Source: Candidatus Heimdallarchaeota archaeon (GTDB lineage Archaea; Asgardarchaeota; Heimdallarchaeia; Heimdallarchaeales; Heimdallarchaeaceae). From it: a stretch of DNA of 64,000 nucleotides. The stretch is from positions 1-64,000 of the forward strand of contig JAAFKI010000045.1 of the NCBI GenBank assembly GCA_021399345.1, read 5' to 3'. A program made the position numbers and the translations under genes. The notes beneath the pieces were generated by a model that ran no database searches, was not told where the DNA came from, and saw only the letters and a list, made by a program, of their open reading frames with translations. Of the stretch, positions 9,652 to 46,840 are shown piece by piece (the first letter of the stretch is position 1; the number at the start of each line of letters is the position of its first letter).

Positions 9652-10017
9652 CTACATCTCTTCTAGACTTTTTATCAAAGCAACTAAGGCTTTGTATAAA
9701 CAATCTGAGCATTCTTTAGCATCAGGATCCATGAAAAGTAGAGTTTCTCTTGTGTTTTCATAGACTTTTTGAGGTATTGATCTACCTCTGAGTTCTATTC
9801 TTTTCTTTTTAGTTGGACAATAAATTAAACCTTCATCATCCAAAACCACAGCGTTTAAACAGAATGTGGGGTTAGCAAACTCTTCCAAATCTGCAACAAG
9901 AAGCTCATCTGGATCATAAAAAGAGACTAATAGAATCATTTCAAGCTCATCTTCTAGAATACAATAAGTAGTATATTCAATCTCTCTATGCATTGGACAG
10001 GGTTGCATTATCCACAT
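9652..10017 (-). CDS. Small acidic Cys-containing hypothetical protein
   Basis: 121 aa with CPMH, CPTK and CSDC motifs; possibly metal-binding. Confidence 0.65.
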   Translation of the reverse strand: MWIMQPCPMHREIEYTTYCILEDELEMILLVSFYDPDELLVADLEEFANPTFCLNAVVLDDEGLIYCPTKKKRIELRGRSIPQKVYENTRETLLFMDPDAKECSDCLYKALVALIKSLEEM

Positions 10018-10121: not shown

Positions 10122-13100
10122 TTATTGTCTTATAGGGGCCCTACTTCTGAAATCGTAGTAAATTTTGGTTATTTCCCTAACAATTTCTTCGTTAAAGGTT
10201 ACAATTAGAAGTGGATCTCCACTTGGAGCTTTGTGTCCTAAGAAACCTTCTTCAATACCATCTCTGGTTGCCATCATTACTGTTAGGTTTGTATCATCCT
10301 TTACAACTACATTCCCCATCCCAAGCATTTTACTTAAGATAGCTTTATCTTCATCTAAATGAGCTGTTGTATTTGTTACAATTTCTAGTTTTCTAGCAAA
10401 AGTTTCAAGGAATTCAGGATCTATCCAATTTAGTCTTGGGCAAATTACTGTAGCTGAAGACTTTGTATTTCTCAAGAGAGACATCATAGTTCCATTAACT
10501 TGTTCGTTACCTGTTACTATCCACATATCTTCAATTGGATTTGGTTCAATTCCTGATCCTAGTGATAAAACACTCTTAATTAATTTCATTGATTCCCCAG
10601 TTGCATCTAAAGCGCCACCAATCTTATCTGGAATTGAACTTAGTGTCCCTGAAATACTAGTGTCTACATTCTCAATTTCTTGTTGAGTTCCTTTAATTAT
10701 ATTCTCTTTAAAACTCATAAGTTTAGAGCTGTAATCATCTTTCTCAGTATCTACAATTTTTGAATCCTCTTGAGCTGCGTTCAATTTTTCTGTTAGAGAG
10801 TTCAAATTGGAATCAAATAGGTCAGTTAAAGTTTTTTCTAGATTACTGAGGTCCGCATTAACTGCATCATTTCCAGAAGTTATAGCCTCTGTAAGAGCAT
10901 CCTTTGTTCCTTGTATATTAGTTACAAGGGCAGATGAATTTGAATCTGAATTAGTAATAAAACTATTAACTTGATGAGACATGTTTAATTCATAATCATT
11001 CCTTTCTTTTTCAAACTCATTTTGGATTTCTGTGACATTATTAACAAAGTCAGTTGCCATGCTTTCATAGGATTTCTCAAGATCTCTTTGAACGCTAGTA
11101 AACATAGTATCAATTTCTGTCTGTGCACCTATTTGAAATTCTTTTATGGAAGAGTCCAAATTAGTTGCAAATGCATCAGAGTCAGTTTTAACCCATTTTG
11201 GATAATTTGCACCAAGCTTTTGAAGCTCTCCCTTAGTATTTGCAAGTGCTTCATCCAATAATGATGATTTCTCAGGAGAAACATTTAATTCCGCTAATAC
11301 TCCTTCAGTACCTTCAATAAACTGTTGGACTTCTTGCTCAATTAAATCATTAATCTCGGTTTCAACCTTTGCTGTTTGAGCACTATAGTTTGTAGCAGCC
11401 TCATCTAGAGTGACAGAAATGTCAGTATCAAGAGCCTCTTTCGCAGATTTGAATTCACTTTGCAAAGATTTCATTGTTACATCCATTGAGGAAGTAGCTT
11501 TGGTTACTAATTTGGAATGATCGTCAATGTTTGACTTGAGTAATTCTTGAAGGTTAGTTGTTACTTCGATATTGTTTTTCTTCATTACATCAAGAATTTC
11601 TTGTTTTGTTGTTTGCAGAGATTCTAGACCATCTTGAATTGTCAAATGAATTTCTGTTTGACCTTCATTATCTTCAGTTGAATCTGGAGCTTGGAGAAGT
11701 TCATCCAATGAACCACTTATGGATTTAGTAATGTCAGAAAATGCTTTAGATTCAGCTCCTATTACATCTGCTAATGATTTAGTGCTTGTTCCTTGTAGCT
11801 CGCTAAATTGCTCTTCATAAGTAGTATACGTTTCTTTAATAGTTCTTTTCATATCATCTGAAGAGGCTGTAAATTGACTACTGATTTCACTCCTTGAAAT
11901 TTCAAATGATTGGCTGGTTTTTTGAAGTGTATCTGTTGTGAATCTTGCTAAATCTTCTAATCTCATATTCATTTTTTCAAATATCTCATTAGACAAAGAA
12001 TTCATTGAATTTGTCAATGTTTGAATCATTTCCGCCATTTTATTTCCAACATTCTCCTTTACTAGCTCAATATCTCTATTCATACTTCCGATTAGTTGAG
12101 CCATTCGTGGTCCCTCTTCTTTTCCAAATACTTTTTGAAGCTGTTTCTCATCTAATCCTTGAAATGTTTGGTTAATCACTTCAATTTTTGCAACGGATGA
12201 TTTAAGCTGATCATCTAATTCTTGTAATCTTTCTATACTAGCTTGATAGTTAATCTGAACAACATTAGGTACTTCATCTCTAACATCTCTTCCTCTTTTA
12301 GAGAACTCATCTGAAAAAACTTCAACATCAGATTTGAATTTGTTTTCTTTTTCAGTTATTAGATTTTGAATTGTTTCGTTGTTATCCTTAACGTTTTTCT
12401 CAATATTAGAAATAACAGTGGTTTTTAATTCATTAATATGAGAAGTGAAGTTATCCTTGAATTCCTCATGGGAGATTGCAAACTTTTCTTTCCTTTCTTT
12501 CAAAGCTTTTTCATATTTAGTAGTTGTTTTTGATAATTTATCTAAATAAGCGTTAGTTGATTCTCTAAATGCAGTCATGATGTCTTCTACAAATAGTTTG
12601 ATTTGATTACTTACGTTTTCAATTGAAGAAGTCAGATTTTCTTCAAACAGATTGAAGCCAATTTCTATTCCTGAATTAAGTGAAGATAGTAGATTATCGC
12701 TATTCTTTTTGAAATCTTTAAGATAAGCGGTTAAGTCATTACTCAATTTAACTTTCATTTCCTCTGTTTTTGCTTCAGCTTGTGTAATTAAATCTCCCAG
12801 CTTCTCAACAGAATCAACTTTAGTTTTATTCAGTAAATCAACAAACTGATTTTCATTCCCTCTCAAAATATTTACTGCTGTTTCTTTTGATTTATCAATA
12901 GAAGTCCTTATTCTGTCTGTTGTTGCGTCTTCAAGTTTTTTAAATTCGTCATTTAATGAAATTAGAATCTGCTGTACTTTTAATTGATATTCGTCAAGCT
13001 TTTTCTCATAATTTGTGATAATTTTGTTTACTGTATCAGAAAGCTTCTTAGAGGAATCTCTTGTAACTACGCTTGAATCTGCTGAGATTTTTTTAACAGC

Positions 13101-13904
13101 TTCATCAGTAACAGTTATAATTACACTTTTTCGTTCCCCTGCTTCTTCTATGAATTCCTGAAGCTGTGCTGATAAGCTTTCTTTTATCCCTCCGACTTTT
13201 TCAAGAAGGGCATCAAGTTGTATTTGAGTTCTCTCATCATGCTCTTTTTGCAGAAAGCCTAATCTTTCCTCTATTTTTACTTTGAATGAATTATGATGTT
13301 CTCCTATTTTGTGAATCGTAGAATCAAAAGAACTAAGAACATTCTCTTTTACTCTTTGAGCAGTTTTTGCAATAGCATCACTGTTTGTCGTAGAAATATT
13401 GGAGGTTTCTGATTTTAGCCTTTCAATCACTTCTGCTGTTTCAGTTTTTCCTGATGAAACTATGTTTGTTAATGAATCCAAAAATTTAGTAGCAGTTGAT
13501 GCAATTTCAGAGGCATGATCATCAACATTTTCTGTGATTTTTACATGAAATGCTGATAATTGTGATCTAAAATTTGTCATAGTTTTATTCCAATCTTCTT
13601 TTACATCATCACTTAATGCCTTTAATTCAGTTTCTAAACGAATAGATACATCCTCTGTAAGCTTAATTTGTGGGGGGAGTGGAATGAAATATGAGGTTCC
13701 CTCTTGGTTTTTAGCTTTGATTTCTCTAATGTAACCTTTGCCAGCTAAGCTGTTTAAAGCACTTTGAATTATATTTGCGGGATGTTTGTAATATGTTTGA
13801 ATTTGACCGATGGTTCTATAACCATATTGAACAATTATTGAATAAACTTGAACTTCATCTTTCGATAAACCAATCTTTTCTAATGTTCCTTCCATTTTAA
13901 TCAC
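10122..13904 (-). CDS. Giant TrmB-like protein: N-terminal wHTH, about 1000-aa amphipathic helical/coiled-coil insert, C-terminal TrmB/PLD-like fold
   Basis: N-terminus LEKIGLSKDEVQVY...ALNSLAGKGYI...YFIPLPP (TrmB HTH pattern); C-terminus MWIVTGNEQV...LLRNTKSSATVICP...ATRDGIEE (TrmB sensor-like, no HKD motif). Confidence 0.75.
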   Translation of the reverse strand: MIKMEGTLEKIGLSKDEVQVYSIIVQYGYRTIGQIQTYYKHPANIIQSALNSLAGKGYIREIKAKNQEGTSYFIPLPPQIKLTEDVSIRLETELKALSDDVKEDWNKTMTNFRSQLSAFHVKITENVDDHASEIASTATKFLDSLTNIVSSGKTETAEVIERLKSETSNISTTNSDAIAKTAQRVKENVLSSFDSTIHKIGEHHNSFKVKIEERLGFLQKEHDERTQIQLDALLEKVGGIKESLSAQLQEFIEEAGERKSVIITVTDEAVKKISADSSVVTRDSSKKLSDTVNKIITNYEKKLDEYQLKVQQILISLNDEFKKLEDATTDRIRTSIDKSKETAVNILRGNENQFVDLLNKTKVDSVEKLGDLITQAEAKTEEMKVKLSNDLTAYLKDFKKNSDNLLSSLNSGIEIGFNLFEENLTSSIENVSNQIKLFVEDIMTAFRESTNAYLDKLSKTTTKYEKALKERKEKFAISHEEFKDNFTSHINELKTTVISNIEKNVKDNNETIQNLITEKENKFKSDVEVFSDEFSKRGRDVRDEVPNVVQINYQASIERLQELDDQLKSSVAKIEVINQTFQGLDEKQLQKVFGKEEGPRMAQLIGSMNRDIELVKENVGNKMAEMIQTLTNSMNSLSNEIFEKMNMRLEDLARFTTDTLQKTSQSFEISRSEISSQFTASSDDMKRTIKETYTTYEEQFSELQGTSTKSLADVIGAESKAFSDITKSISGSLDELLQAPDSTEDNEGQTEIHLTIQDGLESLQTTKQEILDVMKKNNIEVTTNLQELLKSNIDDHSKLVTKATSSMDVTMKSLQSEFKSAKEALDTDISVTLDEAATNYSAQTAKVETEINDLIEQEVQQFIEGTEGVLAELNVSPEKSSLLDEALANTKGELQKLGANYPKWVKTDSDAFATNLDSSIKEFQIGAQTEIDTMFTSVQRDLEKSYESMATDFVNNVTEIQNEFEKERNDYELNMSHQVNSFITNSDSNSSALVTNIQGTKDALTEAITSGNDAVNADLSNLEKTLTDLFDSNLNSLTEKLNAAQEDSKIVDTEKDDYSSKLMSFKENIIKGTQQEIENVDTSISGTLSSIPDKIGGALDATGESMKLIKSVLSLGSGIEPNPIEDMWIVTGNEQVNGTMMSLLRNTKSSATVICPRLNWIDPEFLETFARKLEIVTNTTAHLDEDKAILSKMLGMGNVVVKDDTNLTVMMATRDGIEEGFLGHKAPSGDPLLIVTFNEEIVREITKIYYDFRSRAPIRQ

Positions 13905-13909
13905 TTCTT

Positions 13910-15367
13910 TTATAATTGATCTTTTATTGTTTCAAGATTCCTTTCTAGTCTTTCTAATCGACTTATGAGATCTTTTCTCAATTTTTCTGTTTGTTCTGCT
14001 TTTTTGATATTGTCCTTTGCTTCAATTTCAAGATTAGCTACAGTGGAATCTTGTGTTTCAACAATCTTGCTTTTTGCATTCGAGGACATAGTTGAAATTT
14101 CAGCTATAGTATCTTTTTGAGCTGAATCTATTCTTGAGGTAATTTGTTGACTTGTTCTTTCTAAGGAATCTTTTGCATCAATAATTTCATTTTCAAGAAT
14201 AGATATTCTTTCTGCTACTGTTTTTGCAGCATTGCCTTGTAGAGTGTCAGATTTTTCAACAACGGTTGTTAAAATATCATCTAAATGATTTTTAACATCG
14301 TCCTGTTCCCTTGATACAAAGGATTTTATTTCTTGTTTAATTGAATCTGATTGTTCAGAGAGAGTTGATAAAATTCCATCCACTTTATTGTTGAAATCCC
14401 CCTCAAACTCTTTAAGTTCAGAATCATGTTCATTATATTGATTATTTGTTAAATCATCATAAGATCCTAGCATTGATTCCTTAGATGTATTGAAATTTGA
14501 CATAGCTACTTCATTAACATCAATCATTCCTGTTTCGTATTCCGCTAAAACATCTTGTACTTTTGCAATTTCATCAACAAGATACTTATCCATGGAATCG
14601 GTTACATCAGATAATTCAGATTGAATTCTTTGAACTGCGTTATTAACAAGCTGCCCTAATTCACTTTTTATTCGATTGAAGCTTTCAAAGACAGATTCCA
14701 TGTTTTCAGTTAATTTATCACCATACTCTGATCTTAAATGTTCTATGGATTCTTTCATGATGTTTTGAGCAATATTGATGTTAGATTCAAGCTTTGTTCT
14801 CATATCTTCTGAATTGTTCTTGAAGGTTGAAAGATTATTTCCCTTTATCGTACTGACATCTTCTTTTACACTATCAATTACTTTTCTAAAAGCACTAACT
14901 TGATTATTTGCTAATCGTTCTAAATCTTGTTCATGGTTTGTAAGAGTGGTTCTTATTTTTTCACCAAATGATGAAGAATACTCCACAAAGTTTGTTTTTC
15001 CTTCATCTAAAATAGAAGCAATAGATTCATGTATTTTAGATAATTCATTTTTTGTATTGTCTAACTTCGACACTACAGATTCTGATTGACTTTTAGTCCA
15101 TTCATCAATTAGTTTTTTATCTTCAGATACATTTGCTTCAATAATATCATCTAATGACTGTTTATTTGTGTCAATTAAATTGCGTAAATTCTCATTCAAG
15201 CCAATAAACTTGTTTTGAACTAAAGTTGCTAGAATTTGATAAAATTGATGTAATTCCTTCAAGTTTTCTAGAGATTCTTTAAAATTTACAATCTCTACAT
15301 CTAAATTTTCAATTTCTCTTTTTACTTTTTCTAAATCTTTTGTTATTCTTTCTGACATCTTACTCAC
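13910..15367 (-). CDS. All-helical coiled-coil / apolipoprotein-like protein
   Basis: 485 aa with no Pro and heptad-like hydrophobic periodicity throughout; abuts neighbours (0- and 5-bp gaps); alternative ATG 15358 with GGTGA RBS. Confidence 0.75.
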   Translation of the reverse strand: MSKMSERITKDLEKVKREIENLDVEIVNFKESLENLKELHQFYQILATLVQNKFIGLNENLRNLIDTNKQSLDDIIEANVSEDKKLIDEWTKSQSESVVSKLDNTKNELSKIHESIASILDEGKTNFVEYSSSFGEKIRTTLTNHEQDLERLANNQVSAFRKVIDSVKEDVSTIKGNNLSTFKNNSEDMRTKLESNINIAQNIMKESIEHLRSEYGDKLTENMESVFESFNRIKSELGQLVNNAVQRIQSELSDVTDSMDKYLVDEIAKVQDVLAEYETGMIDVNEVAMSNFNTSKESMLGSYDDLTNNQYNEHDSELKEFEGDFNNKVDGILSTLSEQSDSIKQEIKSFVSREQDDVKNHLDDILTTVVEKSDTLQGNAAKTVAERISILENEIIDAKDSLERTSQQITSRIDSAQKDTIAEISTMSSNAKSKIVETQDSTVANLEIEAKDNIKKAEQTEKLRKDLISRLERLERNLETIKDQL

Positions 15368-17131
15368 CTAAAAATCCAATTCTTTTTCAATATTTTCGAT
15401 AGAAATTTCTTCTACTTCTTTTGGTTCAGGTTCTTCTAAAGGAATCTGTATTTCCTCTTCTCTCCCGTAAATCATATTTGTAAAATAATTGTGATGTATG
15501 CTTTCCTTTTCAAACATCTCAACAGCTTTTTTCCTAATTCTTTCGAAGTTAGTTTTGTCCCCCATGTTTTTATAACAATCAAGGCTTGATTTCAAGTAAC
15601 CTCTAATAGCGTATTCACTTTTTTCCACAGGCAGTGTTACTGATAGTTTTTCAAATTGATCTGCAGCTCTTGCATATGATCTATTTGCTTTAAGTTCTTC
15701 TTCAACTGCTTTATAATAAGAGGCAGATTTTAGGTAAAGTCTAGCTGCAAAATAGAAGTTCTTTTCTTCGAATTCTCTTGCGATTTTTTCGCAGAATGCT
15801 CCTGCTTGCTCTAATTCATTAATCTGTTCAAATTGTTGAGTATTGATTAATGTTAAATCATATGCCTTTTGATACATTTTTCTCTCGATACAAATATTGG
15901 CGATTTTTTGAATCTTTGAAGCTACTGCAAAATCAGCAAGTCTGTCTCTAATTTTACCTGATAAATTCCCAACTTTTTCTATTATCTTATCTGTTGGAGA
16001 AATGTATTTGCTCAAATCCTCTAGAATTGAATCAAGTGTAACCATCAGTGAGGTAATAGGACTGAATAATCTCATTCGGAACTTCATTGCTGTTAATAAG
16101 GATTCTTGAACTAAACGAGCATGTGTTGAACCAATCCACAAAAACCCTTTTTCTTCAAGTGACTTGAGAGCTTCAAAGGGAACATATGCTGTCAATTGCT
16201 CAATCAAGAAAAGATTTTCATTGAATGAAGCCATTTCTGATAAGACAGACTCTTCTTCATCTGTTAGACTAAAGACCTTAGGAATATTTCTTTCCACAAA
16301 ATCATCGATTTCAAATCCAGATTTGATGAAGAAGTTACCTAGGTTTAAATCAAAGAAAGTTCTTTGACTATTATTAACAAGTTCTAGAACCCCCTTATTC
16401 ACAAGTTGAGGTGCAATACGTCGAAGATAAATCTCAGTATCTGAAACAGATAGAGGTTCTATACTGAAAATCTTTGAATTGTTGGTTAAATTCTTTTCAT
16501 AGTCAAAATCAAAAAGATATTGCTTTGTTAGAGCAGTGATTACTACAATGTTGTATCCTCTAATAGATAATTCCTTAATTATAGTTGAGAAAATTGAGTA
16601 AAACTCTTGAATATCCATCAATTTGAATAGATGAATATTATCTACAAAGAAATACAAAGTTGTTTGTGTCTCCTGTAGCTTTTGGTTAACTTTATCTAAA
16701 TTCTCGAAAAACAAATTGACATAAATCTCAGTATAAGTCTGGGATGTTTGTTTCTTGATGTTCTCCTTGAGGGCAGGAAGATCATCACCTAGTTTCTTTT
16801 TTCCTACTTTTTCAAGAACTGAACGCCAAGCTGGAGATATTTCATCAATCATATTTTTCCATTCTTTGAAGAACCCTAACAAATCTTTTTCTTCAGGCAC
16901 TAAATCAAACATGTGGAAAATATCTTTTCTTACCGATATAGAGGAAGATAATTTTCTTAAAAGAGAACTTTTTCCTGTTCCTTCATCACCAACTAGTAGT
17001 ATGGAATGAGTTTTTTCTCCTTCTTTCTTCATGTCTTCTTTTATCTGACTAAAGTCTTTGATAATGTCTCTCAATCCATAAAAATCATCAGGATTGCAAG
17101 GTTGGAAAAGGTTTGAATCTTGAGTACTCAT
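15368..17131 (-). CDS. Archaeal STAND-like P-loop ATPase with wHTH and C-terminal SNAP/TPR-like repeats
   Basis: DDFYG, Walker A GDEGTGKS, Walker B LYFFVDN, wHTH-like LKSLEEKGFL, repeats such as AARLYLKSASYY and ANRSYARAADQF. Confidence 0.75.
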   Translation of the reverse strand: MSTQDSNLFQPCNPDDFYGLRDIIKDFSQIKEDMKKEGEKTHSILLVGDEGTGKSSLLRKLSSSISVRKDIFHMFDLVPEEKDLLGFFKEWKNMIDEISPAWRSVLEKVGKKKLGDDLPALKENIKKQTSQTYTEIYVNLFFENLDKVNQKLQETQTTLYFFVDNIHLFKLMDIQEFYSIFSTIIKELSIRGYNIVVITALTKQYLFDFDYEKNLTNNSKIFSIEPLSVSDTEIYLRRIAPQLVNKGVLELVNNSQRTFFDLNLGNFFIKSGFEIDDFVERNIPKVFSLTDEEESVLSEMASFNENLFLIEQLTAYVPFEALKSLEEKGFLWIGSTHARLVQESLLTAMKFRMRLFSPITSLMVTLDSILEDLSKYISPTDKIIEKVGNLSGKIRDRLADFAVASKIQKIANICIERKMYQKAYDLTLINTQQFEQINELEQAGAFCEKIAREFEEKNFYFAARLYLKSASYYKAVEEELKANRSYARAADQFEKLSVTLPVEKSEYAIRGYLKSSLDCYKNMGDKTNFERIRKKAVEMFEKESIHHNYFTNMIYGREEEIQIPLEEPEPKEVEEISIENIEKELDF

Positions 17132-17344: not shown

Positions 17345-17764
17345 GTGAACGTTTTGTTAAATCCAGCGGAACTGGAAAGCTTAGACTACTCAGAAGAAGG
17401 GATCGCCTTTGCTCAAGAGAGGATAAGGAAGCTTGAAAAAGATAATTTATTTTTGTTTGATTTACTTCATCAGAGTTTAATCATTCTGTTTGATCAATTA
17501 AATGATAAACAAAAAGGAATTTTCTTTGAAAGTTATATTCAAATAGATAGAAAAAAAATATCTCTAAACCGTTTAGCAGAAAAAATCTCAACAAAGTTGG
17601 ATATTTCCTTTTCAACAGCTAAATGGAATATAACTAAACTCAGAGATTTAGGTTTCTTTGAAACTATTGGCATGAGAGGTAACACAAAAACCACTTTAAT
17701 ATCAACAATTATAGGTGACACACTCTATTCCACTCTAGGGCAGATTAAAAACAAAAATCGGTAA
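17345..17764 (+). CDS. Winged-helix DNA-binding protein
   Basis: SLNRLAEKISTKLDISFSTAKWNITKLRDLGFF is HTH-wing-like; divergent from the ATPase operon. Confidence 0.65.
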   Translation: MNVLLNPAELESLDYSEEGIAFAQERIRKLEKDNLFLFDLLHQSLIILFDQLNDKQKGIFFESYIQIDRKKISLNRLAEKISTKLDISFSTAKWNITKLRDLGFFETIGMRGNTKTTLISTIIGDTLYSTLGQIKNKNR

Positions 17765-31455: not shown

Positions 31456-32505
31456 TTATTTCTTTAATTTTGTTAGAGCGATTTGCTCAAAACCTAAAGC
31501 ATTTGACATCACAGCATCATCTGGTTGTAATACTTCATTGGTGTTCTTAACTATGTTAGCTTCAAAGAAGGCTTGTTTTAGATAATCACCAAAGATATAA
31601 GCTCCTCCACCACAAACAATAACTTTCTCAATCCAAGCATCAGGCGGAAGATTGTTGAGCAGTCGATTGCTTTCATCAACAATCACGTCGGCAATAGAAG
31701 TAACTGCTTGATCCATTGCTGACCCAATATCTAGGGCTTTTCCACCAACTAGAATATTTTTTTTACCTTGTTCAATAGCTGTCATCAGGTCAAATGGTCT
31801 TATGATTTTGCCAGCTTTTTCTTGAATTGCTCTAGATAAAGCATTTGTTAAACTGTCAACAGCTTCTTCTAAAGAACCTGATGCAGCTCTCATCATATTA
31901 CCTTTATACATACATAGAATGTCAGTAGTTCCATGACCAACATCTACAATTATAGAATCTACTGCAGTTTGAACACCACTTGTTTTTAGTGTATGCCAGT
32001 AAGTTCCGTAAGGTTCTGGTGCGATAAATACTTGTTCAATCAAGATTTTCATCTGTTTTGATTCACCAGTAGCATCATTTCGAACCTTAATTTCGTGAGT
32101 TCCTTTGAGACCTCTACTTAATTCCTTACTCTCATCAACACCAGTTGCGATGGGAACACCTGTAGCGACTACAAATTGTTCATAACTGGATTTCATAATA
32201 AGACTCAAAATAGCTTTCAAAGCTAGAAGACTATTTTGAATTGATTTCATCTTCCCTTCTGAAGCTAAAGGCTTTCTGATCTCACTCTGCAATCTAGCTA
32301 ATTCACCTATGTAAATTTCATGTCCCTTTGCATCTTCTATGATAAGATTGTTTAGCCAACTTTTATCAGAAGACATACCTTGCCAACCAGGATTAGGTGT
32401 TCCTATAACAGAAGGAATCCTATACTTCAAATCTCCTGAAGTAAGTTTTATTGTGCTTGTTCCTAAATCAATTCCAACAGCATTTGTCATTGGTGCGATA
32501 GGCAT
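31456..32505 (-). CDS. Actin-like ATPase, ParM/StbA-like
   Basis: Phosphate-1 GIDLGTSTIK, IPSVIG, YIGELAR, TGVP, connect-1 APEPYG, phosphate-2 VDVGHGTTD, adenosine CGGGA, SNALGF; GGTGA RBS before ATG 32505. Confidence 0.85.
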   Translation of the reverse strand: MPIAPMTNAVGIDLGTSTIKLTSGDLKYRIPSVIGTPNPGWQGMSSDKSWLNNLIIEDAKGHEIYIGELARLQSEIRKPLASEGKMKSIQNSLLALKAILSLIMKSSYEQFVVATGVPIATGVDESKELSRGLKGTHEIKVRNDATGESKQMKILIEQVFIAPEPYGTYWHTLKTSGVQTAVDSIIVDVGHGTTDILCMYKGNMMRAASGSLEEAVDSLTNALSRAIQEKAGKIIRPFDLMTAIEQGKKNILVGGKALDIGSAMDQAVTSIADVIVDESNRLLNNLPPDAWIEKVIVCGGGAYIFGDYLKQAFFEANIVKNTNEVLQPDDAVMSNALGFEQIALTKLKK

Positions 32506-32802
32506 ATTTTTCACCACAGTTTTTATCTCATGATTTCATTATTTAAACCATTTGTAAGTTCACAAGCAAAGTTAATCACCAAGCTCTTTGCACTTACTGT
32601 ATTTCATTCTAATATACTTAAATTACTATAAAAGCTCGAGGTTCAATTCCATAGTTTTTTATTCCAATTATTAAAATGTAAAAAGCATAAATTTAAAGGT
32701 TTCAACGCTTTAAAGTTAATCATAAGATTATATACCACTGGAAAAAGTATATAAATGCATGTGCTATTTTACGGCTAGCACACGTAAACCCAGGTGATAA
32801 TT

Positions 32803-33472: not shown

Positions 33473-34231
33473 TCAGATGTTCTGGACGTATTCCAATCTT
33501 TGTTCTACAGCTAATTGAGTGAGTTTTTGAATAGGTTTAACAATCAACCAAACTGAATCTGGTCTCTTATCTATTCGTAATCTATTACTATCATCAAAAT
33601 GCTCATCTCTTTTTGGAGATGTTAGGATAGAAAGTAATTCATTCCTTGCATTTAAACAGCTTCCAGTTAATACTAAGTTTGCGGCTTTATCACTATGAAT
33701 AGCACCTTCATCAAGTAGATTTTGGATAATATCTCTTTTATCAAGTCTTTCCTCAGTGGGTAAATCAGATTTGTTGATATAAGCAACTACAGGAATCTCA
33801 GATCCAAATTTCTCACCTACTATTTCCTTAGCTTCCTTAATAATCGCTTCATTTTGCTCCTTTGCTGTTTTTTCGAAGTTCAAAAATAGAATTACTGCAT
33901 CGACACCTTTCATGACAATATCTCTCTGAACCTTGTGTCTTTCTTCTCCAGGAACTGTCCAGAGTTGGTATCGCAATCTATCAAAATTATTTCCTTTAAA
34001 TGGAGGTGTTTGAAAGACACCTTGATCAAAAAATACTGTACGACCTGAATCATCTTGTATTTTTGTTAATGACGAAACAATAGTTTTTGGATTCTCCATT
34101 CTTCTGAGTGCATTAAAAACTGTCAACATGCTTGTTTTACCACTCATCGGAGGTCCAAACAGAACTATCTTAATTGTTGGTTTTCCTTCCCTATCAACTG
34201 AAAAAAGGTTAGATAACTCTAGTTGACTCAT
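33473..34231 (-). CDS. MglA/Arf-like small GTPase (paralog 1)
   Basis: KIVLFGPPMSGKTS, GRTVFFD, QLWTVPGE, NKSD. Confidence 0.85.
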   Translation of the reverse strand: MSQLELSNLFSVDREGKPTIKIVLFGPPMSGKTSMLTVFNALRRMENPKTIVSSLTKIQDDSGRTVFFDQGVFQTPPFKGNNFDRLRYQLWTVPGEERHKVQRDIVMKGVDAVILFLNFEKTAKEQNEAIIKEAKEIVGEKFGSEIPVVAYINKSDLPTEERLDKRDIIQNLLDEGAIHSDKAANLVLTGSCLNARNELLSILTSPKRDEHFDDSNRLRIDKRPDSVWLIVKPIQKLTQLAVEQRLEYVQNI

Positions 34232-42130: not shown

Positions 42131-42159
42131 TGTTGTCTAGATAATATTTTGTGATCATC

Positions 42160-43383
42160 ATGGATAAATTTGAGAAGCTGGCTTTGGAGGCAATAGAAGA
42201 GAGTAAAAGCAGTTCTTATACTCCTCAAGACCCTTTTGTCTCTTTTGGCTTTGATGCCAACCCGTTTCTTGAAACATCTATAGAAGATCTGCAGAATGAA
42301 GAATGTATTGAATCTCGTTTTAGAATGGTCATTAAATACATCAACAAGGTTCACAATAGCTTTCTTGAAAATCATAATAAAAAGAAAAAAGATTCTGATA
42401 CCGTGATAATGGATGGTGTTTTGTATGGCTCAAGTCAGTCAGGTGTTAGTACATTAATTTCCTTAGTTCATCAATACTTGATAAAAGTTCACAAAGAATT
42501 AGCGAACACTGTTTTCTCAGATGCTAAAGAATTAGTTGAATTTGAAGACAACCAATATTCTATCGCAAAAACAATCCAGAATTTTAGAAATTTCATAGGA
42601 AGTCAGAATACAGGAGGAGATACTATTTCACTACTCATCATAGATCATGCTGATTTCTTAATTGATTTCTTTGAAGACTTCAGATACGCACTAGATAGAG
42701 ATTTTCAGAATACACCCATAGTATTTATTTTCTCTCAAGGTGGTTGGACCCGATTAAAGAATCAGCTTGCGTTTTCTGATTATGATTTAATCAATAGTAT
42801 GGTACCAAGTCAACAAATTAATTCCCTAAATAAAGACGAGATATTCGAGATATTAAGTTTAAAATTAAGCAAGAATAAGCAAATTCAAAATCCTTTCACT
42901 AAAGAAATACTTCAAACAATTTCAAAGAAAGCTAGTGGAAGTCTGTTAAATGCCATAAAAATTTGCACTAAAGTTTGTGAAGAATGTTTCTACAATGGTC
43001 TGGATATCTCTTCTTTGTCCCTAATTAATGACGTCACATCATTTCTAGCCATTGACGTGAACAAGGAGTTCTTTGATCTTGTGACACTTAATGATAATAC
43101 TCAAACATTTATTCTTGCTCTAATTACGATGAAGTCTACAGCTTATGATTTTGGTGTAACGTATGATGACATTGTTAATAATTTAGGGATACAAAAAACT
43201 TCAGCAGCCCACCATTTAAAGCAACTTCAAGAAAGACGGTATGTCATAAAAAGGACAGTGAACAGAAAAGCTTTCTACAGATTGAGAGAGGAACTTAAAA
43301 CCATATCTGATACATACTTAATGAAAAGTTTCGAACAGAAAGAAACTCATGTAAGGCTCGAAAGTATTTCTAATTTGGTTTAA
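42160..43383 (+). CDS. Degenerate AAA+ (Cdc6/ExeA-like) protein with C-terminal ArsR-like wHTH
   Basis: FGFDANPF, Walker A GSSQSGVST (Lys lost), Walker B LLIIDHAD, lid ASGSLLNA; wHTH YDDIVNNLGIQKTSAAHHLKQL. Confidence 0.75.
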   Translation: MDKFEKLALEAIEESKSSSYTPQDPFVSFGFDANPFLETSIEDLQNEECIESRFRMVIKYINKVHNSFLENHNKKKKDSDTVIMDGVLYGSSQSGVSTLISLVHQYLIKVHKELANTVFSDAKELVEFEDNQYSIAKTIQNFRNFIGSQNTGGDTISLLIIDHADFLIDFFEDFRYALDRDFQNTPIVFIFSQGGWTRLKNQLAFSDYDLINSMVPSQQINSLNKDEIFEILSLKLSKNKQIQNPFTKEILQTISKKASGSLLNAIKICTKVCEECFYNGLDISSLSLINDVTSFLAIDVNKEFFDLVTLNDNTQTFILALITMKSTAYDFGVTYDDIVNNLGIQKTSAAHHLKQLQERRYVIKRTVNRKAFYRLREELKTISDTYLMKSFEQKETHVRLESISNLV

Positions 43384-43458: not shown

Positions 43459-45093
43459 TTACTCGGATTCTTTTTCCGCTTCTTCTTCATCATACGAAAG
43501 AGGAGGTGTTAGAAGTGCTGTTGATTCAATGAATGTTTTTCCTGCATCGATATTCTGTCGAATGTAACCAAAGTAATCCAATTCAAAGATATACTTGGAT
43601 GCAACTTCCTCAGGTACATTAAGCATTTTAGAAAGTTCTTCTTTAGCTAAAGGTCTCTGGAAATCATTGAGTAAATATAGAACTCTGTATTTAGGATCTG
43701 TATTTAGGAATGCTTCAACTGACTTTAGGGTTTTGTTTAGATTGTCAATTTTCTTTCTTAATTTTTGTATATTGAGTTCATACTGATACTTCTCTTCAGA
43801 AGAAATTGTTCCTTGTTTCTCCATTGTGAGTAAAGTGTTTTTTGTTTCTGTTAATTCTTTAATTGATTCTTCAAGTCTTGCTTTCAAATCTTCTATAGAA
43901 TCTTGTTTTTCCAAAATTTGCTCCTCAACCTTTTCTCTTTCGGTTGCAGTTTTATCAGCGATATCTCTAAGTTCCTTTATCTCAGCTTCTTTTTCAGCAA
44001 ATTGTAACATCATTTCATCAGTGGTTGTCTGTAAGTTATGTGCTTCTTGTTCCTTTGAACTGATATCTTGTTGAAGCTCAACCATAGTTTCAGCAAGTCT
44101 TTCCATATCCTCATCTCTTTGATGAATTTGTTTTCTAAGCTCTTCTACTTGACTTGAATCTTCAGCTTGATCAGCAGCTTGATCTTGAATATCTTCCATC
44201 TGTTTCTTTAATGAATCAATTTGAGATGATTTCTGTTGAATGTCGATTTTTTGATTTCTTACAGTATCTTCATGTTCAGCAATTTGATTTCTAAGATTGA
44301 AAACTGTCTGTCTTGTGCTATCAAGTTGTTTTTGTAGTTCATCGAATAATTGATCCTCTTTGGATAAAGCATCTGAAGACACAGATCTTAAACGTGTTTC
44401 CATCTCTTCAACATGTGTAGACATAGCATCTCTTTCGATTTTTAATCTATTAAATTCAGATTGGAGGTTATTCTTTTCTAGAGATAACTGATGAACGGTT
44501 CTGTCTTTGTCCATTATCACTTGGTCTCTAGCTTCAATTATAGTTTGATCCACGCCCATTGTAGTTGCTTTTTCAGATAGTTCTCCAATGGCTTGGTCTT
44601 TGCTTTTGAGAACTGACTGAATATCTGTCAATTCATTTTGTATAGAGATTGTCTCAGCTTTGAGATTTCCAATTTGATCATTTAATTCATCGATTTTCAA
44701 AGCATCGTCTTGAATTTTCGTTTCATACCCAGGAATTTTTGCAGCTTCAACCCTTAATTTCTCAAGCTCACCAAGCATTTCTTTAGTAATCATTTTCGCA
44801 TCAACATATCCCTGTTCTATACCTTGACGAATCTTACTAGTGCTTTCTGTAACAACCATTAGGTGGATATCCCGTAAAAGACCCACATAACTATCTTTGA
44901 AATTTCGAATAATTTTATCAACTTCGGATACAGAATATTGGGCTTTTCCAGGTGCTAAAGAATTACTTTTAATTTCTTCAGCCCTAGCTTTTACTTGTTC
45001 TTCTGAAGTTGTACGAATAACTCTCATTTCACCTAGAAATTTCTTTACTAGAGAGCGCACAACACCGAAAGGACTTTGCGTTTCTACAGCCAT
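43459..45093 (-). CDS. Long coiled-coil protein with C-terminal wHTH
   Basis: About 350 aa of heptad E/Q/K-rich sequence; tail DPKYRVLYLL...KEELSKML...ELDYFGYI. Confidence 0.75.
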   Translation of the reverse strand: MAVETQSPFGVVRSLVKKFLGEMRVIRTTSEEQVKARAEEIKSNSLAPGKAQYSVSEVDKIIRNFKDSYVGLLRDIHLMVVTESTSKIRQGIEQGYVDAKMITKEMLGELEKLRVEAAKIPGYETKIQDDALKIDELNDQIGNLKAETISIQNELTDIQSVLKSKDQAIGELSEKATTMGVDQTIIEARDQVIMDKDRTVHQLSLEKNNLQSEFNRLKIERDAMSTHVEEMETRLRSVSSDALSKEDQLFDELQKQLDSTRQTVFNLRNQIAEHEDTVRNQKIDIQQKSSQIDSLKKQMEDIQDQAADQAEDSSQVEELRKQIHQRDEDMERLAETMVELQQDISSKEQEAHNLQTTTDEMMLQFAEKEAEIKELRDIADKTATEREKVEEQILEKQDSIEDLKARLEESIKELTETKNTLLTMEKQGTISSEEKYQYELNIQKLRKKIDNLNKTLKSVEAFLNTDPKYRVLYLLNDFQRPLAKEELSKMLNVPEEVASKYIFELDYFGYIRQNIDAGKTFIESTALLTPPLSYDEEEAEKESE

Positions 45094-45901: not shown

Positions 45902-46669
45902 TTAAGATTCGCTTTTAGCAGATTTAACTCGATGAATAATTATTTCTCGTGTTAATTGCTCAATTGGCTGAGCAGTTTTTTGAACACTTAAAGGTCTAGC
46001 TCCTTTCTTAAGACGTCCATATTCATCAAGCATTGATTTTATGTCAGGACTTCTCAAAAGAGTCATCAATTCGTTTCTAGCTTGAAGACAAGATGTTTCA
46101 ATTACTCGCATGTAGGCTTCTCCCTTATTAGCTGCAAGTTTCTTTTCAATTAATAAATCAAGAAACTTATCGGTAGGAGTACGCTCTTCAGGAGGAAGAT
46201 CTATCTTATTCAGAACGATTAAGAATGGCAAGGATTTCCCTAAGATATCTCCCTTAAGGGCAATGAGCTCAACAAGGCTTTCTACATTGTCATCCCACAT
46301 ATTTTTGCTAGGATCGAACATAAATATCAATCCGTCAGCACCCTCAAGAACAACTTTTCTTTGAATATAATGTCTTTTCTGACCAGCTACTGTCCAAACT
46401 TGGTATCTTAGCTTTGGAACACTTACACCTTGTCCTTTTGGTAATTCAAAGGTACTTTGATCATAAAAGATTGTTCTACCACTAGGGTCATCTATCTTCT
46501 TTAAGGAAGAATAGATTGTTTCAGGATCTTCAACTTTCCTTAAAACATTATAGACTGTTAACATACTTGTTTTACCTGATAATGAAGGGCCATATATAAC
46601 CAATTTTAGATACGGTACTCCAGAACCATCTACTTTGAAAATATCTTTGATTTTTAAACTGCTTGACAT
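45902..46669 (-). CDS. MglA/Arf-like small GTPase (paralog 2)
   Basis: KLVIYGPSLSGKTS, GRTIFYD, QVWTVAGQ, GADG, NKID. Confidence 0.85.
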   Translation of the reverse strand: MSSSLKIKDIFKVDGSGVPYLKLVIYGPSLSGKTSMLTVYNVLRKVEDPETIYSSLKKIDDPSGRTIFYDQSTFELPKGQGVSVPKLRYQVWTVAGQKRHYIQRKVVLEGADGLIFMFDPSKNMWDDNVESLVELIALKGDILGKSLPFLIVLNKIDLPPEERTPTDKFLDLLIEKKLAANKGEAYMRVIETSCLQARNELMTLLRSPDIKSMLDEYGRLKKGARPLSVQKTAQPIEQLTREIIIHRVKSAKSES

Positions 46670-46840
46670 CGTATATCTAGCCGCCAAGATTTTTACTTAT
46701 TTAGGTTTTTAGGTGCGAATTCTAAAACCTTTTCTTGATTTATATATGTCCTCATTATAATGAAATTCTATTAAACTTTGCTATAATTTCACTATAAACG
46801 ATTATTCTCTAAATTCTGAACCTCAGAGGTATAAAATGGA

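Follow-up and report, generated by a model that had tools for sequence, protein, structure and literature searches.

A conserved three-gene Asgard operon of a STAND-like ATPase and two hendecad rod proteins, possibly a DNA-anchored scaffold

What might an archaeal cell do with an ATPase encoded directly beside two very long helical rods, one of them built into a TrmB-type protein? The question is raised by three adjacent minus-strand genes in a 64,000-nucleotide stretch of a Candidatus Heimdallarchaeota contig, the whole of which we call the window. An initial annotation, made from the DNA letters alone, read the genes as a candidate undescribed machine in which an ATPase, in a loose parallel to NSF/SNAP, may remodel heteromeric bundles that link DNA to a distant sensor or membrane. 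The observation itself is confirmed here, and the interpretation is partly supported.

The locus and its distribution in Asgard archaea

As longest open reading frames, gene 1 (15368..17131, minus strand; 587 amino acids) encodes a STAND-like ATPase without a fused effector, gene 2 (13910..15367, minus strand; 485 amino acids) a proline-free hendecad helix, and gene 3 (10122..13904, minus strand; 1,260 amino acids) a TrmBL2-like protein with a predicted fold-back hendecad arm. The gaps between them are 0 and 5 bp, as initially annotated, and become 9 and 14 bp with the ATG codons at 15358 (gene 2) and 13895 (gene 3), which are likely the real starts. Met4 of gene 2 is conserved, and an AGGTGA ribosome-binding-like site overlaps the stop of gene 1. 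A promoter scan of the locus with bacterial-type models gave results at chance level. The divergent winged-helix gene that had been proposed as a regulator (17345..17764, plus strand; 139 amino acids) exists but is present in two genera only, so it is accessory and not a core part of the operon.

Genes 1 to 3 are a real, single-copy, linked unit conserved across Asgard lineages. Of 400 Asgard genomes, 85 have the gene 1 ATPase; they span 16 families that include Heimdall-, Wukong-, Freya- and Helarchaeota, and strong gene 2 matches were found in ATPase-positive genomes in 71 of 71 cases. Wherever the contig extended far enough to look, a rod gene adjoined gene 1. The full triad is present in the Heimdall order, in f13, f14, f28, f29, f32 and f33, and on divergent contigs; one genome (G227) has a rearranged gene order with the members still together. 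Helarchaeota have the ATPase and a TrmB-rod without gene 2, and they stand apart in both the ATPase and gene 3 trees, the ATPase tree grouping by family. No close gene 3 was found in two genomes that are 91-94% complete and have genes 1 and 2 (G049 and G070). Most Asgard TrmB-rod proteins are solitary, without ATPase or gene 2, suggesting that this rod is able to work alone.

The operon genes are strictly single copy, and their distribution is patchy but ancient. In its own family the operon has kept its place amid gap, map, dnaJ and dnaK; elsewhere its neighbors vary, with no recurring regulon and no conserved membrane or cytoskeletal gene. Canonical Smc occurs alongside the operon in three genomes (G077, G116 and G127), and none was found in this family. 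A literature search, in which subscription journals were thinly covered, found no published description of the three-gene operon, in keeping with the initial view of an undescribed unit.

A STAND-type ATPase without a fused effector

Gene 1 is predicted to have the STAND architecture (NBD-HD-WHD-TPR) without a fused effector, a domain that STAND NTPases usually carry (PMC6468293). In the AF2 model (pLDDT 86), the NBD (residues ~1-225) begins at about residue 10 with nothing N-terminal to it. A helical domain (229-286) and a WHD (291-355) follow, then a TPR-like arm or sensor of helical repeats (358-551; 15479..16060, minus strand) with conserved surface residues E441, E448, K481 and R510, and past the repeats just an acidic tail (558-587). 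The winged helix and the absence of an N-terminal effector had been noted initially, together with intact Walker A and B motifs. Walker A (GxxGxGKS) is indeed intact, but Walker B reads FFVDNIH and lacks the second, catalytic acid. Most of the gene 1 family has an acid (E/D) three positions past the Walker B Asp, where members from this genus have H or Q. The family motif is mostly D-x-x-[ED]-R, compared with DNIH here and no Arg after the sensor-1 strand. The helical-domain GxP site reads G-[IV]-P in Freya, Hel and f28 members and R-x-P in most others; its Pro has been lost in this genus.

The top Foldseek and VIA matches of gene 1 are Avs3, PH0952, MalT, SSO1545 and NLRs, and PH0952 aligns to residues 10-554. 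Cdc6/Orc1 scores similarly to the STAND matches over the core, and NSF D2 ranks 29th, amid generic AAA+ folds. PDB sequence searches returned P-loop matches only. In a search of representative proteins, gene 1 belongs to a closed family of ~25 clusters at 50% identity, far from other matches, and all named members are Asgard.

The repeats had been described as alpha-SNAP/TPR-like. Pfam SNAP is the commonest repeat match in the family (9 of 26 members), though the matches are weak and partial, covering about half of the profile, and exceed the cut-off in one member; a profile search of this gene 1 protein gave no SNAP match. Atlas feature hits under 0.9 for the repeats are generic TPR. The helical repeats stand, and their likeness to SNAP appears to be at the TPR level only.

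These results bear on the NSF/SNAP-like machine originally envisaged, in which a processive ATPase with SNAP-like repeats dismantles heteromeric bundles of genes 2 and 3. The lead of SNAP among the family's repeat matches and the helical bundles encoded next door speak for it. The core of gene 1, however, is of the STAND/AP-ATPase type with a WHD and not an NSF-type double AAA+, and the length of gene 2 is independent of gene 3 (see below). Because the Walker B motif here is without its second acid, a slow switch fits gene 1 better than an NSF-like motor, and we regard dismantling of this kind as highly improbable.

Avs3 heads the Foldseek list, which recalls an NLR/Avs-like antiviral system: gene 1 would sense a viral protein, and the rods, which match ZorA tail profiles, would be the effectors. 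Those matches are confined to the helical tail, however, without the MotA-like membrane domain, and the operon has no nuclease, other toxic effector or HKD motif. Its stable housekeeping context and vertical inheritance, with strictly single-copy genes and a family-congruent tree, also argue against defense. An immune role, which the initial annotation had offered as an alternative, is a poor fit and appears very unlikely.

Two rods with a common period

Both halves of TrmB reported initially are present in gene 3. The TrmB winged-helix domain (residues 8-75; 13680..13883, minus strand) matches PF01978 over the cut-off (E 2.8e-9). The C-terminal TrmBL2/PLD-like domain (residues ~1121-1260; 10125..10544, minus strand) has a conserved RDxxE, and a sequence scan found no HxK motif in it, consistent with the lack of HKD. 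Foldseek places TrmBL2 at ranks 1-8 for this domain (E 5e-8), followed by PLD/Nuc folds; a PDB sequence search with the domain returned no match. TrmBL2 is a chromosomal protein (PMC4158304; PMC11840125).

Many TrmB proteins are regulators (PMC4158304), and the nearest structures over the whole of gene 1 are the STAND-TPR regulators PH0952 and MalT. The operon might therefore be a split transcription regulator: ligand sensing by the TPR region would be passed along the rods to the TrmB head, which would act at specific promoters, possibly with DNA looping. The wHTH effector that PH0952 carries on its own chain (PMC6468293) could here come from gene 3, in trans. On the other hand, TrmBL2, the match of the gene 3 C-terminal domain, is without the sugar-binding part (PMC4158304), no regulon recurs among the varying neighbors, and promoter control needs no 75-nm arm under strict length matching. 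We give this reading a small but real chance.

Between its two domains gene 3 has an N arm (residues 78-581) and a C arm (598-1121), separated by a midpoint hinge at residues ~582-597 with an FGK motif (12114..12161, minus strand), a helix break in the model. The rod has an 11-residue repeat and contains five prolines. Its period of 3.67 equals that of gene 2, as expected from the initial remark that the two rods are similar, and compares with 3.49 for a control coiled coil inside the window. Across 20 proteins of 715-1812 amino acids, N-arm and C-arm lengths correlate (r=0.996), with the hinge at the midpoint. Deletions in separate lineages are matched in both arms (106/104, about 120/120, 231/241, 73/66 and 30/29 residues). 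A charge signal lies at the predicted register i+j ~1195 (z -3.4 and -3.7; -3.8 in a further analysis); neither small subsets nor anchoring at the hinge reproduced the register. These patterns identify gene 3, by prediction, as a TrmBL2-like head, made of the wHTH and the PLD-like domain, with a self-paired antiparallel hendecad arm of ~520 residues and ~75 nm. Since such an arm folds back, it would bring the two TrmB halves together, contrary to the earlier picture of a rod holding a sensor far from the DNA.

Gene 2 is, as first described, an amphipathic helix throughout. It has no Pro, Cys or transmembrane segment, its hendecad phase is unbroken over residues 34-440, and neither Pro nor Gly makes a turn at the center. 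A conserved core (residues ~200-290; 14498..14770, minus strand) lies at the protein midpoint in 16 proteins of 425-773 amino acids (r=0.995), with a predicted two-fold axis near residue 248. In the pooled set, antiparallel charges complement each other best at offsets 0, +4 and -3 (z -4.7, -4.4 and -3.0; 501 offsets), and peaks at +4 and 0 (z -3.9 and -3.6) occur in lineages outside the order that fixed the center. The charge statistics, here as for gene 3, come from shallow, related samples (Neff ~19). The midpoint core, charge symmetry and unbroken helix together suggest that gene 2 is probably an antiparallel, bipolar homo-oligomer, a continuous helix pairing about its own midpoint. A pair would probably make a rod of roughly 70 nm with its copies head-to-tail. 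A paired 11/7-residue indel in gene 2 was dropped, as its position shifted with the choice of aligner.

Do the two rods pair with each other, as initially proposed? Gene 2 length is unchanged where gene 3 loses 210-630 residues, and this independence makes a full-length, in-register bundle of the two unlikely. Charge and volume covariation between the genes gave no consistent register; a parallel peak at offset 159 (z -3.5) is expected from ~800 trials and was not reproduced. We rejected gene 2 as a copy of the gene 3 N arm, since the full-length profile score was 119, compared with 113-117 in reversed controls. Only the gene 2 core aligned with the N arm a little better than controls did (75% versus 13-37%; widening the alignment gave 93%, at offset 150), so homology of this core to the N arm is plausible, if unproven. 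Binding among the three products is inferred from gene linkage.

The amphipathic rods also suggest a tether of the chromosome to membrane or cytoskeleton, serving segregation, division or shape. In such a tether the rods would attach either to lipid, by apolipoprotein-like faces, or to a filament, and would be set free by the ATPase. Pfam Apolipoprotein matches below the cut-off, the acidic outer face of the 11-mer helices and the patchy, ancient, single-copy distribution are compatible with this. Yet only three core positions make up the hydrophobic stripe, a narrow face that self-pairing explains; transmembrane segments are absent, and a membrane or cytoskeletal gene is never a conserved neighbor. 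We consider a tether unlikely.

A possible DNA-anchored scaffold and its known relatives

A regulated, DNA-anchored Asgard scaffold is in our judgment the best explanation of the operon, and we hold it at about even confidence. Gene 3 would sit on DNA as a dimer or tetramer in the manner of TrmBL2, with binding by its wHTH expected from the family only. Two copies of gene 2 would form a symmetric bipolar rod of ~70 nm. The equal halves of this rod, or its conserved center, may contact gene 3 arms at local sites and thereby cross-link, or set the spacing of, gene 3 molecules on DNA. Gene 1 would be an on/off switch that depends on nucleotide: by holding a conserved patch on a rod, its TPR region would control the assembly, and the rods would stand in as a trans-acting effector. 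The system would then probably organize or position the chromosome rather than sense sugars, fuse membranes or kill the cell.

More tentatively, and with somewhat less than even confidence, the operon may be an ancient Asgard chromosome-architecture machine, in which bipolar gene 2 rods bridge TrmBL2-headed arms into a STAND-controlled network. If so, an SMC-like geometry would have been built from unrelated parts, with an NLR-type switch governing a structural assembly. The known roles of NLR-like switches would widen if a STAND protein acts on a structural rod and not via a fused effector. The operon bears on how Asgard archaea organize and segregate their chromosomes, and eukaryotic cells are marked by long coiled-coil scaffolds that ATPases control. 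For the three proteins, which are soluble, the structural predictions are sharp: a gene 3 hinge at ~590 with register i+j ~1195, and a gene 2 two-fold axis at ~248.

Each part comes from a known family, and our searches turned up no known system that combines them in this way. NSF/alpha-SNAP likewise sets an ATPase and TPR-like repeats beside helical bundles, and the gene 1 family gives the weak, partial Pfam SNAP matches noted above. The operon differs in its ATPase class, in a single NBD instead of N-D1-D2, in repeats that are fused rather than a separate adaptor, and in having neither SNARE nor membrane anchor. Zorya has the MotA-like membrane domain of ZorA, and Avs a toxic effector; neither is in the operon. 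Exchangeable apolipoproteins have Pro-punctuated 22-mer lipid-binding helices, whereas gene 2 has no Pro and the gene 3 rod five, and Pfam scores stay below cut-off. The kinesin-5 BASS stalk is a bipolar antiparallel rod, and gene 2 resembles it in its predicted symmetry about a conserved central antiparallel overlap, without motor or globular domains and without shown homology.

The STAND-TPR proteins PH0952 (6mfv), MalT (8bob) and Avs3 (8dgc) and the AP-ATPases SSO1545 (2fna) and PAB2304 (2qen) have, like gene 1, NBD-HD-WHD followed by TPR-like repeats. Gene 1 departs from them in its lack of a fused effector, short repeat region, missing sensor-1 Arg, degenerate Walker B in the genus and closed family. 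SMC, Rad50 and MukB are DNA-related and share with gene 3 the intramolecular antiparallel fold-back arm of tens of nanometers that reunites N- and C-terminal domains. Gene 3, however, is hendecad instead of heptad, has a TrmB head instead of an ABC ATPase, and turns at a short helix-turn rather than an SMC hinge domain; TIGR02169 does not list it. The ATPase is separate and of STAND type, and there is no kleisin in the locus. Closest to gene 3 are TrmBL2 of Thermococcales (5bpd, 5bqt, 5bpi and 5box) and TrmB (3qph and 2f5t), which share its TrmB wHTH, amphipathic helix and PLD-like domain without HKD. In the TrmB family a short dimerization helix joins the two domains; at that place gene 3, with 1,260 amino acids to the 264 of TrmBL2, carries an inserted fold-back hendecad arm of ~1040 residues and, unlike TrmBL2, is encoded beside an ATPase and a second rod.

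Locus layout and distribution

The three genes are minus-strand ORFs lying where the initial annotation placed them: gene 1 (15368-17131, 587 aa), gene 2 (13910-15367, 485 aa), and gene 3 (10122-13904, 1260 aa), with gaps of 0 and 5 bp between the longest frames. The true starts of genes 2 and 3 are probably three codons downstream of those frames' starts, and an AGGTGA site overlaps the stop of gene 1. GC content is 31.7% versus 33.5% genome-wide, and close homologues are assigned to Heimdallarchaeaceae. The locus is flanked by gap/ornithine aminotransferase on one side and map/dnaJ/dnaK on the other, a neighbourhood conserved family-wide. The divergent wHTH gene beside gene 1 (17345-17764, +) occurs in two genera only. 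A 121-aa Cys-containing ORF (9652-10017, -), without a match in Pfam, lies 105 bp downstream of gene 3 in the same orientation; its position is conserved in several genera of the family, and it is absent there in other families.

Of 400 Asgard genomes, 85 carry the ATPase encoded by gene 1, each in a single copy; they span 16 of 33 families and include Heimdall-, Wukong-, Freya-, and Helarchaeota; one further match, to the core only, falls outside the 85. Gene order is the same in most ATPase-carrying lineages, and all strong gene 2 matches (71/71) fall within ATPase-positive genomes. The order is rearranged to gene 3, gene 1, gene 2 in G227 (L048:5485-12661), the sole carrier of the triad among 135 genomes of its family, possibly through transfer or misbinning. 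Another family, f5, has gene 1 adjoining gene 2 and gene 3 ~8-18 kb away; in two of its genomes, G049 and G070, genes 1 and 2 were present and a search for gene 3 found none. In G128 (L051:1-2295), the TrmB-rod gene after the ATPase is apparently broken in two, a 503-aa ORF with a helical ORF after it, through a frameshift or a real split.

In Helarchaeota, the ATPase immediately precedes a TrmB-rod gene, and gene 2 was not found there. ATPase and gene 3 trees both separate Helarchaeota from the triad lineages (L041 is a linked locus). The ancestor may plausibly have had two genes, with gene 2 acquired later. Because the profile of the gene 3 C-terminal domain matches in 376/400 genomes and the non-linked loci examined (~18) are stand-alone TrmB-rods, the operon represents one specialised offshoot of a pan-Asgard family of proteins. 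Two stand-alone TrmB-hendecad paralogues lie in the genome of the window (C184:9269-11581, +, 765 aa; C184:58088-60337, +, 747 aa); the first adjoins a small-GTPase gene cluster, as in G030.

The STAND-like ATPase

Gene 1 matches AAA_16 in Pfam, and its predicted structure (pLDDT 86) comprises an NBD, a helical domain, a WHD, ~9 repeat helices, and a disordered acidic tail. Its domains follow the NOD-arm-sensor plan on which STAND proteins are built (PMC6468293), without a fused effector. Full-length relatives group into ~25 clusters as a closed family, beyond which matches drop steeply to ordinary AP-ATPases. Both Walker motifs had been called intact. Walker A is conserved (K in 102/110 rows, duplicates included), whereas Walker B, mostly D-x-x-[ED]-R in the family, reads DNIH in the genus of the window protein. 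Gene 1 has the architecture of a STAND protein and, in this genus, lacks the catalytic and effector features.

Structure comparison places gene 1 near Avs3, PH0952 (a STAND-TPR protein), SSO1545, PAB2304, MalT, NLRs, and Cdc6/Orc1. We consider a defence system very unlikely. The repeats, previously described as alpha-SNAP/TPR-like, hold up at the TPR level: Pfam SNAP matches occur in 9/26 members, cover about half of the profile, and are absent from the window protein, and Atlas leads are generic TPR with scores <0.9. An NSF-like disassembly machine is the least probable reading we weighed.

Two helical rods

Gene 3 carries a TrmB wHTH (Pfam) and a C-terminal domain whose top structural match is TrmBL2, with PLD/Nuc enzymes ranking lower; a search of this domain for the HKD motif found none. 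Gene 3 thereby has two features of TrmBL2. We consider a split transcription regulator an unlikely reading.

The rod between the two TrmB halves has a hendecad period of 3.67 in all homologues tested (control coiled coil, 3.49). Length variants show matched losses in both arms, 106/104 for the window form versus 1471-aa forms and ~120/120, 231/241, 73/66, and 30/29 in other lineages. A hinge motif sits at the midpoint (20 proteins, 715-1812 aa long; r=0.996, with a median difference of 5.5 residues), the predicted helix is interrupted at 582-597, and both charge covariation and charge complementarity are strongest at i+j=1195 (1194 in a second analysis; absent in small subsets). Because of these paired deletions, midpoint hinge, helix break, and charge register, we conclude that the arm folds back over ~75 nm (0.15 nm per residue), placing both TrmB halves at the same end. 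Within the genus (L092, L093 versus L039, L089, L091), the 1474-aa form nests among 1260-aa forms with a common deletion, which suggests recombination or repeated loss.

Gene 2 orthologues form a genuine family, 425-773 aa long, with a conserved core at the midpoint in 16/16 proteins tested (halves, r=0.995). With the centre chosen from the Heimdall order, charge complementarity about the midpoint peaks at offsets 0, +4, and -3 in pooled lineages (z -4.7, -4.4, -3.0) and again at +4 and 0 outside that order (z -3.9, -3.6), values that serve as guides rather than probabilities since related genomes are not independent. This pattern would be expected from two antiparallel helices. The hendecad phase is continuous from residue 34 to 440, and at the centre there is no Pro or Gly turn of the kind that a hairpin would require; antiparallel pairing between two molecules, into a bipolar rod of ~70 nm, therefore appears likelier than a hairpin. 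Gene 2 length is unchanged where gene 3 has lost 210 or ~630 residues, which argues against a full-length, in-register gene 2/gene 3 bundle and allows local docking on gene 3.

Elsewhere in the window, a converging pair encodes a 410-aa protein with a C-terminal wHTH, resembling a degenerate Cdc6/ORC-type P-loop (42151-43383, +), and a 544-aa heptad coiled coil of period 3.49 with a weak crescentin-rod match and a wHTH-like end (43459-45093, -). An actin-like protein (ALP_N, MreB-like_C) lies near two small-GTPase-like P-loop proteins (31456-32517, 33473-34231, and 45902-46687, all -).

Proposed mechanism and known systems

Sequence comparison establishes the operon architecture, the gene linkage, and the predicted self-pairing of gene 2 and of gene 3; from linkage we infer that the three products touch. 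We give about even chances to a model in which DNA-anchored gene 3 arms are bridged by the gene 2 rod and toggled by the STAND protein. Gene 3 would bind DNA in the manner of TrmBL2, a fibre-forming chromosomal protein by which Smc-ScpAB is positioned (PMC4158304; PMC11840125). Two gene 3 arms would be bridged by the bipolar rod of gene 2, suited to the task by its two equal halves; the best-conserved rod patches are the centre of gene 2 and the middle of the gene 3 N arm. The STAND protein would most likely toggle this assembly, since its own effector is absent, as is the catalytic acid in the window's genus. The rods might instead tether DNA to a membrane or cytoskeleton, a reading we doubt more than that of a split regulator.

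A search of five genomes for full-length canonical Smc (TIGR02169) found it in G077, G116, and G127 and not in the genome of the window (89% complete) or G027 (closed). The literature searched holds no description of the three-gene system, which is real, conserved, and undescribed there, its function being our reconstruction. It falls outside NSF/SNAP, Zorya/Avs, and the apolipoproteins. Its gene 3 arm is like SMC in geometry, though the system is not an SMC member, and its likeness to a STAND switch lies in control.
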